Origin: an uncultured Candidatus Saccharibacteria bacterium
Lineage (GTDB): Bacteria > Patescibacteriota > Minisyncoccia > Phycocordibacterales > UBA918
Assembly: GCA_964353135.1 (NCBI GenBank)
Contig: CAYGTV010000002.1
Span: 1,125 to 65,124 of the forward strand
Direction: 5' to 3'
Length of the DNA stretch: 64,000 nt
The position numbers and the translations under genes are program-made. Shown piece after piece: positions 3,084 through 13,053 of the stretch. Every line of letters begins with the position of its first letter. Positions within the stretch are counted from its first letter, which is position 1. The notes beneath the pieces were generated by a model. That model ran no database searches. It worked only from the letters and a program-made list of their open reading frames with translations, and was not told where the DNA came from.

Positions 3084-4460
3084 TTATTTCAAAAATTCGA
3101 CAAGTTCGGCAATCGCCACACGTTGTTGTTCCCCGGTATCACGGTCACGGACTGTCACGGTGTCAGCTAGGTCGGGAGCTTCTTGACCGAGTGTTTCAAA
3201 GTCGATTACAACACAATTCGGCGTACCGATTTCATCCTGACGACGGTATCGTTTCCCTACGTTACCGTTATCATCCCAGGCGACATTTCCAAATTCCTTT
3301 TTCAGCAGCGAAAATACTTCGCGGGCTTTGGCGACTAGCTGGGGTTTATTTTTAAGCAGCGGAGAGACCGCCACGCGGTATGGGGCAAGATGTGCGGGCA
3401 GCTTTAGGAATACCCGGGTATCGTCTCCCATTTGGTCTTCGGTATACGCTTCGCAGAGAACGGCAGTCATTGCGCGGCCAATTCCAAATGATGGTTCTAG
3501 TACGTGTGGGATAAACGGTGCTCCTTCGACCGGTGTGTAGCGTAGCTTAACCCCACTTGCTTCCTCGTGACTTTTCAGGTCATGATCAGTTCGGTACGCA
3601 AACCCAGCTAGCTCGTCAAAGCCTTTCCCTGGATAGTTGTATTCAAAATCGATTGTTCGTTTGCTGTAGTGTGCGAGGTCGTTTTCTGGAACTTCGAATT
3701 CTCGAATGTTTTCATCCGATAGACCAATGTGTGCATGCCACGCTCGGATGTCTACGAGCATTTTTTCATATTCTGTTTTCCAATCTTCTTCTTTAACAAA
3801 ATATTCAATCTCCATTTGTTCAAACTCACGCACGCGGAACAACCACTCTCGTGGAGCAATTTCGTTTCGAAATGCCTTTCCAATCTGAGCGATACCAAAC
3901 GGCAGTTTTGGTGACATTGTATCAACCACGTTTTTAAAGTTCACAAAGATTCCTTGGGCCGTCTCCGGCCTCAGGTAGGACTTGTACTTTCCTTCGGCTC
4001 CAACCATAGTTTCAAACATCAGGTTGAAATCTTTGATATCGGACAGCTCATTGCCAGCTGGGCTTTTTATAGCATTTTCTTTGATCAACACGTCCATCTC
4101 TTGTGCAGTTAGACCCTCTGCTTCAATACCGTGGTCTTTGAGAAGATGGTCTGCGCGAAACCGTTCTCCGGTTTTTATGTCTTCAATCAAAGGGTCAGAA
4201 AAGCCCGCTCCTGTGTGACCACTAGCTTCCCACACTCGTTCATTCATTAAAATCGCTGCATCGAGTCCGTACATATCTTCGCGTCCATCAACAAACATTT
4301 TCCACCATTCTGATTTAAGGCGGTTGTTGAGAGCTACACCTAGTGGACCTAAGTCCCAAGTTCCTTTTAGCCCTCCATAAATATCACTCCCTGGAAATAC
4401 GAAACCGCGCCGCTTAGCGAGCGCTACTACTTTTTCCATCGTGTCAGAATTCTGTGTCAT
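3084..4460 (-). CDS. glyQS: glycyl-tRNA synthetase, dimeric alpha2 type
   Basis: N-terminus RRGFVFPGSDIYGGLKGTWDLGPLG and KAFRNEIAPRE-type class II motifs. 458 aa. ATG at 4460. Confidence 0.85.
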   Translation of the reverse strand: MTQNSDTMEKVVALAKRRGFVFPGSDIYGGLKGTWDLGPLGVALNNRLKSEWWKMFVDGREDMYGLDAAILMNERVWEASGHTGAGFSDPLIEDIKTGERFRADHLLKDHGIEAEGLTAQEMDVLIKENAIKSPAGNELSDIKDFNLMFETMVGAEGKYKSYLRPETAQGIFVNFKNVVDTMSPKLPFGIAQIGKAFRNEIAPREWLFRVREFEQMEIEYFVKEEDWKTEYEKMLVDIRAWHAHIGLSDENIREFEVPENDLAHYSKRTIDFEYNYPGKGFDELAGFAYRTDHDLKSHEEASGVKLRYTPVEGAPFIPHVLEPSFGIGRAMTAVLCEAYTEDQMGDDTRVFLKLPAHLAPYRVAVSPLLKNKPQLVAKAREVFSLLKKEFGNVAWDDNGNVGKRYRRQDEIGTPNCVVIDFETLGQEAPDLADTVTVRDRDTGEQQRVAIAELVEFLK

Positions 4461-7021: not shown

Positions 7022-10000
7022 TTACCCAATAGAAAATTTAAATGACATACTGTCTGCAGCTACCTCTTCTCCATCAGTGTCGGCAAACTGTAGACTTGTT
7101 GCGCCGACAGTTTTTTGTAGTAACTCTTGGTTAGCTTCGATAGCTGCTTTCCCTGCTTCGCTAGTCTGCACGGTTAAGATAATTTCGTCCTGTGGTTCTA
7201 GTCCGTCAGTTTTTCGCTTAGCTTGGACCGCTCGCATCAGCTCTCGCACTGCCCCTTCGGCGATTAGTTCCGGTGTTAGTTCCGTATCAATCCCAACGGT
7301 ATCAGCCACCCCATAGTCCTTGGCGTTGAGTTCATCGAGCACTACTTGTAGAAGACCTTCTGGCAGTTCAGGGCCAAACACTGCAGCAATTGGCTGCCGG
7401 ACTTTGATACCTGATTTGGTGCGTGCTTCCAGCGCCATCGTGACGATGTTTCGCGTCTCGACCATTTTCTCCAGCAAGTCTTCGTTTACCATTCCTTCGG
7501 TTGGCCAGGCGGCTAGGTGAACGCTTTCGGCGTCATCTTCTTCTCTGATTGCTCGCCAGAGATAATCAGCGTAAAACGGCATCGATGGGGCGATAGTTAG
7601 TGATAGTGTTCGAAGTACGTGTCGCAAGGTAGCCAGGGCGAGTGTTCGGTCGACGGCGTCTTCCCCTTTGAATCGATCTCGCGAACGACGCAGGTACCAG
7701 ACTGACAGATCGTCAATAAAGTCATTGATTGGTCGGGTAGCTTTATCCAGTTCGTACGATTTGTAGCCAGCAGTTGATTCATTCACCAACTGTTGCAACC
7801 GCGCCACGATCCATTGATCGAGCACATTTGATGAGTCACCGCGTGCTTCGGTTCCGTCAGCAAACATTTCATACATCGCCAGCACGTTGTGTAGTCGGCC
7901 GATGTTTTTTCGCTGCAGTTCCAGCACTTCTTTCTCTGAGAAGTTAAGGTCTTCCCCCCGCATGATTGGTGACGAGAGTAGGTAGAGTCGCATTGCGTCG
8001 ACTCCAGTGCGATCTGCCAGATCCATCGGGTCTGGGTAATTCTGCAATTTTTTAGACATTTTCTTGCCGTCCTCGGCCAGCACGAGACCGTTTACAATTA
8101 CGTTTTCATACGGTGATTTTCCAAACAAAGCAGTACCTAGTACGATCAATGAATAGAACCAACCTCGAGTTTGGTCGAGACCTTCAGCAATAAATTGAGC
8201 CGGCAAACCAACCCCATTTTCTGGTTCAAAGTCTGACTGAGCTTCACCCATAAAGTGTCGCTGACCGTATGGCATTGACCCACTTTCAAACCAACAGTCA
8301 AAGACGTCTAGCACCCGTTCCAACCTCACGCCACCTTCTTCCAGTACAACATCATCGATATACGGCCGATGAAAATCGAGCTCGTAGTTGTCGTTGTGTG
8401 GCAGCGGCGTGAAATCGAGTTTCTCCCATTGCGCATTTTCGAAGTACCGTCCACTATCGTAGTCAGCCTTTTGCTGCTCTGCATTCCAACCAGCGGCAGC
8501 AGCACGCAGCGTTGCGATTGGGCCACCGTGACAGATGATCAGGATGTTCTTTCCTTGGTAATTAGGGTTTGATTCTAGACCATACAAGAATTCCCCCATA
8601 CGCTTCATCACGTCGCGCCGGTTTTCTGAGCCAGGTAGATCTTTGGTAAACCGTTCTTCCCAGGTGGCAAAATTAGCCGCGTAGTCATCATGCCAACGCT
8701 TGCCTTCAAATTCATCTGCCAAATCGTATTCACGAATGATTTCGTCGAACAGTAGAGACGTTTCTGATAGGCCAAGTTCTGTCCGAACCAGCTCTGCTGT
8801 TTGCCTAGTACGCATAAACGGTGAGGCGATGATCAGGTCGATGTTTTCACTTTTTAGTTCGACGGCGGCTCGTTTTACCTGCTCTTTTCCGGCTTCAGTT
8901 ATAGAATCATCGTTATCAATATTGGCACTGATTACTCCAGCCACATTACTCTCACTTTCACCATGGCGCATAACAAAATACTGATTCCCAGATTTGGGTA
9001 CGTATTGCTTCAGCTCTTCGAGCGAGCCAAGTACCTTATATTCACCGGTAGTTGGATTTTTCCAGATTGGCAATGGTGCGCCCCAGTATCGCTGTCGTGA
9101 CACTGCCCAGTCACGTGCCCCATCAAGCCACTTTCCAAAGCGGTTGGTTCCGACGTGCTCTGGCACCCACTTGACCTCGCTGTTATTTTTTACCAACTGG
9201 TCTTTGATGCTTGGTACGTCTACAAACCACGATGTTGTCGCGTAGTTCAGCAGTGGTGTGTCGCATCGCCAACAGTGCGGATAGCTGTGGGTAATGTTTT
9301 CTTTTTTGAAGATTACACCAGCCGCCTGGAGGGTTTTCAGTACTTCAATATCAGCATCCATGTGCCCTACCCCTGACTCGTCGTCGTCCTTTGGTTTAAC
9401 CAGCTGCCCAGCAAAGTCAGACACCCAGTCTTTAAAGTGTCCGGTATTGTCGACGTGGTGCACGATTGGCACGCCGTGAGCCTGAGCTAGTTTCATGTCG
9501 TCGTCACCGTAGGCTGGTGCGATGTGAACTGCACCTGTCCCATCCTCACCAATCTCGACGTAGTCCGCGTGACGGATCACCCAGGCATTTTCACGCCCTT
9601 CCATATCTTGCTCCCCCATCCATGGGAATGGCGGTTGGTATCGACGCCCGACCAGGTCTGCACCCTTCATTTCTTCCACCACCTCGAATTGAGTCCCGTC
9701 TAACTGTGCCAAACGACCCTTTGCCACAATCACAAATTCAGTTTTTTCTTCTGTTGTAACTTTGGCTTTTACATACGTAAATTCTTCGTTCACGGCTGCC
9801 GCTAGGTTTCCAGGCAGCGTCCACGGCGTAGTAGTCCAAACCAGCAGACTAGTGTCAGTAACAGCACCAGCGTCATCGAGCAACGGCAATTTAACCGTCA
9901 CCGCGATATCTTTGATATCTTTGTAGCCCTGGTTCACCTCAAAGTTAGACAGCGTGGTTCCACAACGCGGGCACAAGTGCATGGTTTTAAAACCTTCAAA

Positions 10001-10564
10001 CACAAGTCCTTTCTCGTGTAGCTGTTTGAACACCCACCAGACACTTTCGGTGTAGGTGCTATCCATCGTTTTATAGTCATCGTCCATGTCCGCCCAGCGC
10101 CCCATGCGCGGAATGATCTGCTTCCAATCATCCGCATACTCCATCACCGCATCACGCGCGGCTTCGTTAAAATTCTTGACCCCGTACTCTTCGATGTCGC
10201 GCTTAGTCGCAAGGCCGAGTTTCTTTTCAATCAAGTTCTCGAGCGGCAGACCATGGCAGTCCCAACCCCACTTGCGGCGTACCCGGTATCCGTTCATGGT
10301 CCAGAACCGCGGAATTGCGTCCTTGATTGTTCCTGCCAAAATGTGTCCATAGTGCGGCAGACCGGTTGCAAACGGCGGACCGTCGTAAAATACAAAATCT
10401 CCTTTAGGAGAGTCACCGGCTGGTGACACTACTGATTTATTAAAAATATCCTGTTCTTCCCAGAAAGCTTGGATCTGTTCTTCGCGCAGGGCGACTTCAC
10501 TTTTTTCAACTGCCTCAACAGTTTTTACTGAGTCGTTTTCACGACCATGTACCTTTTTATTCAT
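7022..10564 (-). CDS. ileS: isoleucyl-tRNA synthetase with an inserted histidine-phosphatase (PGAM-like) domain
   Basis: PHYGH, WDCHGLP and KMSKKL motifs; CP1 zinc knuckles. In-frame ~195-aa insert (aa ~528-720, nt ~8405..8983) carrying RHGESESN and ICHGGP histidine-phosphatase motifs. 1180 aa. ATG at 10564. Confidence 0.85.
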   Translation of the reverse strand: MNKKVHGRENDSVKTVEAVEKSEVALREEQIQAFWEEQDIFNKSVVSPAGDSPKGDFVFYDGPPFATGLPHYGHILAGTIKDAIPRFWTMNGYRVRRKWGWDCHGLPLENLIEKKLGLATKRDIEEYGVKNFNEAARDAVMEYADDWKQIIPRMGRWADMDDDYKTMDSTYTESVWWVFKQLHEKGLVFEGFKTMHLCPRCGTTLSNFEVNQGYKDIKDIAVTVKLPLLDDAGAVTDTSLLVWTTTPWTLPGNLAAAVNEEFTYVKAKVTTEEKTEFVIVAKGRLAQLDGTQFEVVEEMKGADLVGRRYQPPFPWMGEQDMEGRENAWVIRHADYVEIGEDGTGAVHIAPAYGDDDMKLAQAHGVPIVHHVDNTGHFKDWVSDFAGQLVKPKDDDESGVGHMDADIEVLKTLQAAGVIFKKENITHSYPHCWRCDTPLLNYATTSWFVDVPSIKDQLVKNNSEVKWVPEHVGTNRFGKWLDGARDWAVSRQRYWGAPLPIWKNPTTGEYKVLGSLEELKQYVPKSGNQYFVMRHGESESNVAGVISANIDNDDSITEAGKEQVKRAAVELKSENIDLIIASPFMRTRQTAELVRTELGLSETSLLFDEIIREYDLADEFEGKRWHDDYAANFATWEERFTKDLPGSENRRDVMKRMGEFLYGLESNPNYQGKNILIICHGGPIATLRAAAAGWNAEQQKADYDSGRYFENAQWEKLDFTPLPHNDNYELDFHRPYIDDVVLEEGGVRLERVLDVFDCWFESGSMPYGQRHFMGEAQSDFEPENGVGLPAQFIAEGLDQTRGWFYSLIVLGTALFGKSPYENVIVNGLVLAEDGKKMSKKLQNYPDPMDLADRTGVDAMRLYLLSSPIMRGEDLNFSEKEVLELQRKNIGRLHNVLAMYEMFADGTEARGDSSNVLDQWIVARLQQLVNESTAGYKSYELDKATRPINDFIDDLSVWYLRRSRDRFKGEDAVDRTLALATLRHVLRTLSLTIAPSMPFYADYLWRAIREEDDAESVHLAAWPTEGMVNEDLLEKMVETRNIVTMALEARTKSGIKVRQPIAAVFGPELPEGLLQVVLDELNAKDYGVADTVGIDTELTPELIAEGAVRELMRAVQAKRKTDGLEPQDEIILTVQTSEAGKAAIEANQELLQKTVGATSLQFADTDGEEVAADSMSFKFSIG

Positions 10565-11355: not shown

Positions 11356-13053
11356 CTATAGACGCTCTGGAGCCTCGATCCCAAGAGCCCACAATCCTTG
11401 TTTGAGTGTCTGCCCTACTACTTGCGCAACCGCTGCTTTGTACGGCGCAAATTCGTCAGAAGCATCAGCAATTTTTTCCTGCGCGTAAAATGAGTTGAAC
11501 TCAGACGCTAGTTCGGTCAAATACGTTACCAAAGCTTGTGGAGCTCGGTCAATTAAAGCTGTCTGCACCACTGCTGGAAATTCCTCAATCATTTTTTCGG
11601 CGTTATAAGCCTCGGTTGGAGACACACTTGTATCTGCATCCACTCCCGCTTCCTGGGCTTTTTGTAACACTGACTGGATACGAGCATACGTGTATTGTAA
11701 GTATGGACCAGAGGCACCTTCAAACGAAAGGGCTTTTTCTTTATCAAAGACAATATTTGATCCAATTCCATGACGAAGGATTTCGTATTTCAATGCGGCA
11801 ACCGCTACCTGCGTCGCTAAAACATCACCACCCTCAGAACGCTCCGACATTTTTTCCTTGGCCGCGTCCTCCATATCAGCAATGATCGATTCACCAGTTA
11901 GCACATTCCCTTTTCGTGAGGACATTTTTCCGGTGCTAAGTGTAAGAAAACCAGTTGGAATATGCTCTAAATGTTTGTTTGCCGCTTCAGGAAAGATTTC
12001 TTTGATTGCAGCGTAGACCACTTTAAAATATTCAGCTTGTTCCCCACCAGTAACGATAATCGACTGAGTCCAATCAGGATGTTGGTCGTGTTTCAGTTTA
12101 TAGTGCCCAACATCTTTTGCTTCATACGTCGGTAGACCTTTTGAATTAAGGAACACTCGTGTGTGTAAACCTGATCGATCACCGTCGTACACAATCGCCC
12201 CTTCACTCTCAGCAAATAGCTTGCCAATGTTTTCTTTCACAATTTCTGATCCAACTGGTGCTGCCTGACTTTCAAAAATCTCCGTATCAAAATGGGTACC
12301 CAGTTTTTGACAGATTGCATGAATCTGGGCGTTTGAGGTAGCAATACCGGCTTGTCTTAACCGAGATAATTCTTCATCCGAATTTGCATACAACGCCTGA
12401 TTGATCGCGATGATGTCATCTTTTTCAGGACCTTCAGCTTCATATGCTTCATTGCCAACCCGGTATGCAGCACCCAGTTCCTCGATCTTGCTTGGATCAT
12501 TCCCAGTTTGTTGAAGTCCCCACACTGCTTTTGCTACTGGCAAGCCAATATCAGACGGGTAGTTTGCTCGGACAACAGTCGCGCCAGCTAGTTCAAACAA
12601 CCGAGTAAACGACTCTCCAATAATATTCCCCACCAAGTTTCCTACATGTAATGGTTTAAACAAGTTTGGGCTGGTGTACTCGACGATTACTTGCTCACCA
12701 CTTGCAGATTCGTTTCGACCCCATTCATCCCCAGCAGCTATAGCTCCTTTTAGTGTGGTTGTAAAATACGCTCGCTTGAGGCTGAAGTTTAGAAACCCAG
12801 GACCAGCCACTTCTACTGAATCAACCAATTCAATTTGACCGTCGATAGTTTGTTTAACCTGTTCCGCTACCTCCCTCGGATTTTGCTCCACTTGTTTTGA
12901 TAGCACCAATGCCACATTAGAAAAGACATCTGCTCCGGCATTTTTATCAGTTGGATAATCCACGACAAAGGAAACCTCTGGCCAACCGAGAGTCTTGATT
13001 GCTTTCTCTATCTCAATGCGGATCGTGTCTTGCATGGTTTGTACTGTACCCAA
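11356..13053 (-). CDS. argS: arginyl-tRNA synthetase
   Basis: SPNLFKPLHVGN (HIGH region, variant HVGN) and the C-terminal YTYARI anticodon-binding-domain motif. 565 aa. Confidence 0.8.
   Translation of the reverse strand: MGTVQTMQDTIRIEIEKAIKTLGWPEVSFVVDYPTDKNAGADVFSNVALVLSKQVEQNPREVAEQVKQTIDGQIELVDSVEVAGPGFLNFSLKRAYFTTTLKGAIAAGDEWGRNESASGEQVIVEYTSPNLFKPLHVGNLVGNIIGESFTRLFELAGATVVRANYPSDIGLPVAKAVWGLQQTGNDPSKIEELGAAYRVGNEAYEAEGPEKDDIIAINQALYANSDEELSRLRQAGIATSNAQIHAICQKLGTHFDTEIFESQAAPVGSEIVKENIGKLFAESEGAIVYDGDRSGLHTRVFLNSKGLPTYEAKDVGHYKLKHDQHPDWTQSIIVTGGEQAEYFKVVYAAIKEIFPEAANKHLEHIPTGFLTLSTGKMSSRKGNVLTGESIIADMEDAAKEKMSERSEGGDVLATQVAVAALKYEILRHGIGSNIVFDKEKALSFEGASGPYLQYTYARIQSVLQKAQEAGVDADTSVSPTEAYNAEKMIEEFPAVVQTALIDRAPQALVTYLTELASEFNSFYAQEKIADASDEFAPYKAAVAQVVGQTLKQGLWALGIEAPERL

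Follow-up and report, generated by a model that had tools for sequence, protein, structure and literature searches.

A predicted type-2 isoleucyl-tRNA synthetase of Patescibacteria carries a histidine phosphatase domain nested in its CP3 subdomain

The window analyzed here, a stretch of 64,000 nucleotides from an assembly labeled as an uncultured Candidatus Saccharibacteria bacterium (GenBank contig CAYGTV010000002.1, positions 1,125 to 65,124), contains a gene for isoleucyl-tRNA synthetase (IleRS; 7022..10564; all window features given below are on the minus strand) whose CP3 subdomain is interrupted by a complete histidine phosphatase domain. We consider it fairly likely that the product is a genuine bifunctional protein, in which a housekeeping IleRS is combined with an active phosphomonoesterase module that would act on a small-molecule substrate and be linked to its host by tethering or loose coupling. 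Within this reading, the architecture and the enzyme identity are firm, and the substrate class and the coupling are weak. Judged by the homologous sequences collected, the insert is not a one-off but is conserved in a large clade of Patescibacteria. The aminoacyl-tRNA synthetases (aaRSs) rank with the most conserved and most intensively studied enzymes, and few extra catalytic domains besides editing domains are known in bacterial ones; the arrangement described here would mean that, throughout a large radiation of uncultivated bacteria, an essential synthetase contains a second enzyme that is apparently active.

Results

A histidine phosphatase domain nested in CP3

An in-frame insert had been predicted at 8405-8983. 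The frame is as predicted, but alignment to the structures 8wnd and 9w01 bounds the inserted segment at residues 522-728 (8381..9001), so that the earlier borders missed about 8 codons of it at the C-terminal end and 6 at the N-terminal end. In the phmmer alignment to eukaryote-type IleRS structures, residue 521 of the window protein pairs with residue 491 of 8wnd and residue 729 with residue 498, leaving approximately 207 residues in the window IleRS where the eukaryote-type structures have about 6. Where fragments of type-2 IleRS (IleRS2) from many organisms lack the domain, 7-14 residues stand in its place. CP3 comprises residues 459-526 in the numbering of ScIleRS (PMC7955072) and residues 473-534 in that of CaIleRS (PMC7191050), the two enzymes from which our domain names are taken over, and these ranges, combined with the 8wnd pairing, put the insertion point inside the CP3 subdomain. 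The insert was also said to sit where some IleRSs have a zinc-binding loop, which agrees with this placement, as CP3 of Thermus thermophilus IleRS bears a zinc motif (PMC7191050). In a 387-residue IleRS2 fragment (P0033), a 33-residue segment with flanking Cys pairs (CQNPAC ... CNKCDG) occupies the same CP3 position and resembles the zinc-bearing CP3 of T. thermophilus; the length of this loop thus varies across IleRS2.

In the insert, the His_Phos_1 domain is followed by a conserved return linker (F718..P722-H723-N724). The insert begins 27 residues past the CP2-3 linker ARDWAVSRQRYWG (ARDW..RYWG; residues 483-495, 9080-9118), which in the yeast enzyme contributes to the pocket that receives the tRNA CCA end and reveromycin A (PMC7955072). 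In the full-length AlphaFold2 (AF2) model, the linkers on both sides of the insert have predicted local distance difference test (pLDDT) scores above 90, and from the confidence of these linkers the module is probably docked on CP3 and not free-swinging.

The Pfam family His_Phos_1 (PF00300) matches residues 530-697 (8474..8977), with E = 4.3e-27 and 95.5 bits in the whole protein and E = 1.3e-28 and 100.5 bits in the insert alone, against a gathering threshold of 21.7 bits. When the insert alone was modeled by AF2, a complete domain was obtained (pLDDT 94.9; predicted template modeling score, pTM, 0.91), and the top Foldseek matches to this model are the glucosyl-3-phosphoglycerate phosphatase GpgP Rv2419c, the novel-type phosphoserine phosphatase PspA, a histidine-family phosphatase (HFP) of the riboflavin pathway, PhoE, and CobC, with template modeling (TM) scores of approximately 0.75 over 193-198 columns. 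The model and its matches bear out the alpha/beta fold of histidine phosphatase branch 1 and, together with the Pfam match, confirm the superfamily identity that the original prediction had read from two sequence motifs. Its term "PGAM-like" is apt for the superfamily, but the insert resembles a phosphatase of the PhoE/PspA/GpgP/CobC type rather than a glycolytic mutase; cofactor-dependent mutases rank below phosphatases in the Foldseek list, and no protein phosphatase of the SixA, PGAM5, or Sts type is found among its best 50 matches.

The solved phosphatases nearest in fold, PhoE/YhfR (PDB 1h2e), PspA (4ij5), GpgP Rv2419c (4pz9), CobC (6e4b and 6nru), and the riboflavin HFP (9mmh), share with the insert the fold and the cap, the size of about 200 residues, and the catalytic residues. 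Their sequence identity to it is only 24-27%, and they are free-standing, whereas the insert is nested in another enzyme. Five NCBIfam models of characterized subfamilies were considered as names for the insert and rejected. The best match, dPGM_arch (NF038349), scores 78.4 bits against a cutoff of 225; the model for cofactor-dependent phosphoglycerate mutase (dPGM; TIGR01258) reaches 24.5 of 81.7 bits and covers insert residues 4-69 only; and the models for the alpha-ribazole phosphatase CobC (TIGR03162), the phosphoserine phosphatase PspA (NF045917), and SixA (TIGR00249) give 64.6 against 162.9, 54.8 against 350, and 39.4 against 74.5 bits, respectively. On its sequence and predicted fold, the insert is thus a member of the His_Phos branch 1 superfamily that stands outside all of the characterized subfamilies tested.

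Conservation of the catalytic residues

We aligned the window protein with 80 genomic relatives (81 sequences). Roles were assigned to residues of the insert by alignment to PspA, CobC, and 9mmh, from which the nucleophilic His, the second His, both phosphate-binding Arg residues, the Asn, and the acid/base Glu could be read. The RHG motif (8960..8968) comprises R533, the nucleophile H534, and G535 and opens the longer RHGESESN motif (residues 533-540), which ends in the phosphate-pocket residue N540 (8945..8947). The second phosphate-binding Arg is R585 (8810..8812, in SPFMRT), the presumed general acid/base is E612 (8729..8731, in IRE), and the second catalytic His is H679 (8528..8530, in CHGG, residues 678-681). 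For E612, we take the acid/base role partly from established knowledge of the histidine phosphatase family. Both His motifs are therefore intact, as had been predicted.

R533, H534, N540, G559, S581, R585, E612, R655, and H679 are invariant in 81 of the 81 sequences, including both catalytic His residues. The R/H/R/E/H set is also kept in all 21 domain copies taken from the variant architectures described below, and N540 in 20 of them, at pairwise identities among these copies of 21-53%, even within one protein. The insert as a whole is less conserved than its surroundings: mean column conservation over the 81 sequences is 0.54 in the insert and 0.73-0.79 in the flanking Rossmann-fold parts. 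An invariant catalytic set amid low overall conservation is the pattern expected of an active enzyme, and we infer from it that the insert is probably catalytically competent, as the original prediction had supposed.

The host protein and the integrity of its gene

The host gene (7022..10564) is a single uninterrupted open reading frame (ORF) of 1180 codons plus stop, and the window contains no other IleRS gene. The NCBIfam model for IleRS (TIGR00392, ileS) scores 854.9 bits on the whole protein against a cutoff of 621.4, and the next-best NCBIfam similarities are of the MupA/MupB type, which marks the host as a type-2, eukaryote-like IleRS. Searches with phmmer against solved structures agree, with E values of about 1e-194 to 1e-202 for IleRS2 and eukaryotic IleRS and 1e-86 for IleRS1, as does the top Foldseek match of the full-length AF2 model, the IleRS2 of Priestia megaterium (PDB 8c8v; E = 3e-72). 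Pfam divides the protein into five parts: tRNA-synt_1 in two pieces, His_Phos_1, Anticodon_1 (residues 916-1060), and DUF5915 (residues 1089-1179).

The N-terminal part of the IleRS (residues 1-521; 9002..10564), delimited from Pfam, the structure alignment, and motifs, contains the first half of the Rossmann/HUP fold with HYGH (residues 71-74, 10343-10354), the CP1 editing domain with the motifs WTTTPWT (residues 243-249, 9818-9838) and GTGAVHIAPAYGDDD (residues 342-356, 9497-9541), CP2, and the first part of CP3. Zinc knuckles had been predicted in the editing domain. The CxxC pairs are present, as CPRCG (residues 198-202, 9959-9973) and CWRCD (residues 431-435, 9260-9274), but they belong to the CP core and flank the editing domain instead of lying inside it; the CP-core zinc motif of T. 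thermophilus IleRS has been placed at this position (PMC7191050). The C-terminal part (residues 729-1180 plus stop; 7022..8380), delimited from the same evidence and the AF2 model, comprises the rest of CP3 (LDFHRPYID, with HRPYIDD starting at residue 732), the second Rossmann half with DCWFESGSMPY (residues 756-766, 8267-8299) and KMSKK (residues 835-839, 8048-8062), the anticodon-binding domain, and the type-2 C-terminal domain (DUF5915).

With the model cutoff exceeded, the HIGH- and KMSKS-type motifs and the CP1 editing motifs present, and the C-terminal organization of type 2, the description of the host as an otherwise canonical IleRS stands. As far as motifs and domain matches can tell, the synthetic motifs, the editing motifs, and the tRNA-binding parts are all kept, and we take the host to be the housekeeping type-2 IleRS of an ultra-small bacterium of the Parcubacteria group (Patescibacteria, or candidate phyla radiation, CPR). 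Its whole architecture, the HUP core with HIGH and KMSKS, the CP core, CP1-CP3, and the anticodon-binding and C-terminal domains, is shared with type-2 bacterial IleRS of the mupirocin-resistant kind, such as that of P. megaterium (8c8u/8c8v), and with T. thermophilus IleRS (1ile). It differs at CP3, where the solved type-2 enzymes aligned have a few residues and the T. thermophilus enzyme a zinc motif, whereas the window IleRS has its approximately 207 residues and, with them, a second enzyme domain.

Composition does not set the insert apart from its host. GC content is 0.478 in the insert and 0.500 in the host gene, GC content at third codon positions (GC3) is 0.469 and 0.507, respectively, and the cosine of codon usage between insert and host is 0.891, compared with a control distribution of 0.88 ± 0.02. 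An identical protein is also encoded on a contig that was assembled separately, from a public sequencing run. A chimera or frameshift, which had been named as one possible refutation of the prediction, is ruled out, as far as sequence data can do so, by this host-like composition, by the separately assembled contig, and by the same ORF in the 80 genomes described next.

Distribution and variant architectures

At least 80 loci, with one genome scanned per species, span the insert together with the flank on either side (query residues 1-293) at 43-76% identity, so that the insert recurs in at least 80 related genomes. Only these 80 retained loci are counted here as insert-bearing; a figure of 572 relatives was set aside because the search pattern behind it, DVFDCWFE, is common to all IleRS2. 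All 80 loci have one long ORF running through host and insert, which exceeds 1100 residues in 67 of them, and nearly all of the remaining shorter ORFs are cut at contig ends. In one Parcubacteria bacterium OLB19 locus (L032:3485-6326), which is not cut by a contig end, the ORF through the insert has 947 residues; a frameshift, stop codon, or masked stretch in the assembly could be responsible.

The named relatives belong to the Parcubacteria group (Kaiser-, Nomura-, Wolfe-, Taylor-, Lloyd-, Yonath-, and Paceibacteria, and Elulimicrobium), a placement that was checked for Kaiserbacteria. About 30 third-party assemblies carry the label "Saccharibacteria", which we treat as unverified, and two records with an IleRS-His_Phos protein, L056 (contig QYPD01000003.1) and P0032, are labeled as spirochaetes (Spirochaetia, Rectinemataceae). 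These labels probably reflect binning or labeling errors rather than real spread, with horizontal transfer as a possible alternative.

A search of 1.84 billion cluster representatives (50% identity) with the insert only gave 580 matches below 1e-10, and IleRS-like segments flank the domain in at least 92 of the best 150 of these representatives. Most of these proteins have approximately 1150-1200 residues, with the domain at about residues 490-710. The insertion sites among the best 150 fall into site A in CP3 (95 domains), site B immediately before the anticodon-binding domain (3), site C (2), and site D (1). A separate search for homologous proteins listed only matches of at most 512 residues, and fused-architecture counts derived from it are underestimates; it appears to be restricted to short or partial proteins, as full-length IleRSs of about 1200 residues exist in the same sources and none was listed. 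Two apparently free-standing relatives (P0110 and P0047) lie on short contigs.

Several proteins carry more than one copy of the domain. Two have tandem His_Phos_1 copies at CP3 (P0185 and P0238), and two combine one copy at CP3 with one just ahead of the anticodon-binding domain (P0193 and P0223). In P0224, a copy at CP3 is accompanied by one in the loop after the WFESGS helix, and in P0225, a copy in this loop is accompanied by one ahead of the anticodon domain. These two-copy proteins mostly have 1000-1470 residues; the multi-copy arrangements were confirmed by Pfam and NCBIfam, and NCBIfam assigns P0185, P0193, and P0225 to IleRS. A 1161-residue fragment (P0122) with four nested His_Phos_1 domains is a valyl-tRNA synthetase (ValRS; NF004349, 410 bits, versus 199 for ileS), and the phenomenon is thus not strictly limited to IleRS.

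A further architecture is found in L084:3-4289 (plus strand of a 5796 bp Logan contig from SRR14932512), where the IleRS is spread over several ORFs under code 11. With TGA read as sense, it becomes one IleRS of 1429 residues with 8 in-frame TGAs. Four of these have an aligned counterpart in the window protein, which is a glycine in three cases, from which we conclude that this organism uses code 25 (UGA = glycine). In this IleRS, CP3 hosts a nested Ser_hydrolase domain (PF06821) directly behind DFHRPYIDEI, and a His_Phos_1 domain is found at site B. Taken together, the sequences indicate that the association of IleRS with phosphatase domains is old, recurrent, and not bound to one insertion point. 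The two- to four-copy variants and the alternative sites suggest that the arrangement is selected for and not accidental.

Genomic neighborhood

The IleRS gene is one of four aaRS genes within 12 kb, all on the same strand: MetRS (1253-2689), a class II synthetase of the Gly/His/Pro/Ser/Thr type (3084-4460), IleRS (7022-10564), and ArgRS (11356-13053). Between them lie genes for a DUF11 surface-type protein and a RecO-like protein and a small membrane ORF.

Discussion

In the reading that we favor, a complete His_Phos branch 1 domain of about 200 residues, nested in a surface linker of CP3, would work as an enzyme of its own within a functional IleRS. H534 would attack a phosphomonoester to give a phospho-histidine intermediate, with R533, R585, N540, and H679 holding the phosphate and E612 acting as acid/base, and hydrolysis of the phosphomonoester through phospho-H534 would be likelier than transfer. 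As the cap region and the fold are closest to those of PhoE, PspA, GpgP, and CobC, a small phosphorylated metabolite or nucleotide would be the likeliest substrate, rather than a macromolecule. In other lineages, the domain is present at different IleRS sites and in several copies. This favors a tie in which IleRS, as an abundant scaffold that tolerates insertions, would keep the domain tethered and co-expressed, or else a coupling that is local and loose, over a fixed channel from the phosphatase to the synthetic site.

Some observations weigh against this bifunctional reading. The insert reaches none of the NCBIfam equivalog cutoffs, and specificity is consequently not transferable to it from any characterized enzyme. 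The N-terminal 170 residues of the full-length AF2 model are unreliable, in a region without alignment coverage. A tolerant scaffold alone would hardly account for the repeated use of IleRS hosts and of one ValRS, at separate sites, and this choice of hosts may point to a specific coupling that the reading underrates.

Such a coupling would make the domain a third active site tied to aminoacylation, acting in cis on something that the synthetase binds or makes. Candidate substrates would be a 3'-phosphate or 3'-pyrophosphate on the tRNA CCA end, AMP or pyrophosphate, a phosphorylated adenylate-mimic inhibitor, or phosphorylated IleRS itself. Nucleases or toxSAS-type toxins leave 3'-phosphate or 3'-pyrophosphate on the CCA end of tRNA, and HipA-like kinases target other class I synthetases. 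That the host is almost always IleRS and once its sister enzyme ValRS, and that insertion recurs at several sites in at least two Patescibacteria lineages, would fit this proposal, as would the proximity of site A to the ARDW..RYWG linker, 27 residues upstream, which belongs to the tRNA-CCA/reveromycin pocket of ScIleRS, and the rigidly modeled linkers of the insert. However, the sites vary among CP3, a loop of the HUP fold, and the junction before the anticodon domain, so that no single geometry toward the CCA end is conserved; repair in cis does not call for two or more deeply diverged copies per protein; and the nearest folds are capped small-molecule phosphatases, to the exclusion of SixA-, PGAM5-, and Sts-type enzymes from the top 50. 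To our knowledge, the histidine phosphatase superfamily has no RNA-end phosphatase, which also counts against the proposal. A link to anti-phage defense was sought with PADLOC and rejected, with 0 families at E <= 0.01. We thus regard it as possible but rather doubtful that class Ia synthetases of Patescibacteria have repeatedly recruited His_Phos modules, joined in one lineage by a serine hydrolase, to serve as an extra active site coupled to charging; unblocking of the tRNA 3' end, destruction of phosphorylated inhibitors or adenylate mimics, and reversal of an inhibitory phosphorylation are tentative examples of what such a site might do.

It is distinctly unlikely that the insert is a non-catalytic module that regulates or stabilizes IleRS as a phosphate or ligand sensor, a dimerization element, or an extra tRNA-binding surface. 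Many members of the histidine phosphatase family dimerize and some are pseudo-enzymes, and the faster evolution of the insert relative to the host core (0.54 versus 0.73-0.79) would suit such a role, but the invariance of the nucleophile, the general acid, and all of the phosphate ligands in the 81 aligned sequences, repeated in the further 21 copies but for a single N540, is the pattern of an enzyme.

The proposal that the insert is the organism's own or an auxiliary dPGM of lower glycolysis, carried on IleRS, could draw on the short archaeal dPGM model as the best NCBIfam match and on the phosphoglycerate mutases among the structural matches; we hold it to be very improbable. The score of 78 bits lies far under the cutoff of 225, the classical dPGM models cover no more than about 65 residues at the start of the insert, and phosphatases rank above mutases in the Foldseek list. 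The insert reads EYDLADEFEGK where, as we understand the family, dPGMs have an ERHYG-type motif, and it presumably also lacks their C-terminal tail. The unusual architecture and the conserved HN near the C-terminal junction (PLPHND) might be cited for an artifact, through chimeric assembly or a frameshifted fusion, or for a selfish, mobile insertion of the intein kind. Either is hardly conceivable given the host-like composition, the uninterrupted ORF in 80 genomes from many assembly projects and on the separately assembled contig, the lack of any Hint, intein, or endonuclease domain in Pfam, and the Asp that follows HN in place of Cys, Ser, or Thr.

Two NCBIfam entries come near the bifunctional IleRS that we favor. 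NF040702 (IleRS, N-acetyltransferase domain-containing; NCBI-curated) is a precedent for an IleRS that hosts a foreign catalytic module, although its extra domain is a GNAT domain and the window protein, with 311 bits against a cutoff of 1999, is not a member. In the bifunctional RNase H/acid phosphatase of the Rv2228c type (NF005567), a His_Phos domain is joined to a nucleic-acid-related protein, and the insert scores 67 bits on its phosphatase half; that protein is an end-to-end fusion with another partner, whereas the insert is nested. The histidine phosphatase domain of the TFIIIC subunit tau55 is a tRNA-related case that is likewise an end-to-end fusion and not nested.

We found no mention of a phosphatase in IleRS in the full-text literature searched, nor was one mentioned in a 2026 preprint on the domain architectures of 96,219 IleRS sequences, in a 2023 paper on IleRS2, or in a 2026 survey of domain insertions. 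The sequences themselves are already public, under the source names isoleucyl-tRNA synthetase, class I tRNA ligase family protein, histidine phosphatase family protein, and PhoE. A phosphatase coupled to charging would represent a new accessory function of aaRSs and show a new side of translation in minimal genomes; should it instead be independent, the protein would still be a clear natural example of the nesting of one enzyme in another. Metabolic reconstructions of CPR bacteria that proceed by domain may count these IleRS inserts as genes for phosphoglycerate mutase or PhoE, and some fragments already bear the name "broad specificity phosphatase PhoE" or "histidine phosphatase family protein" in the source records.

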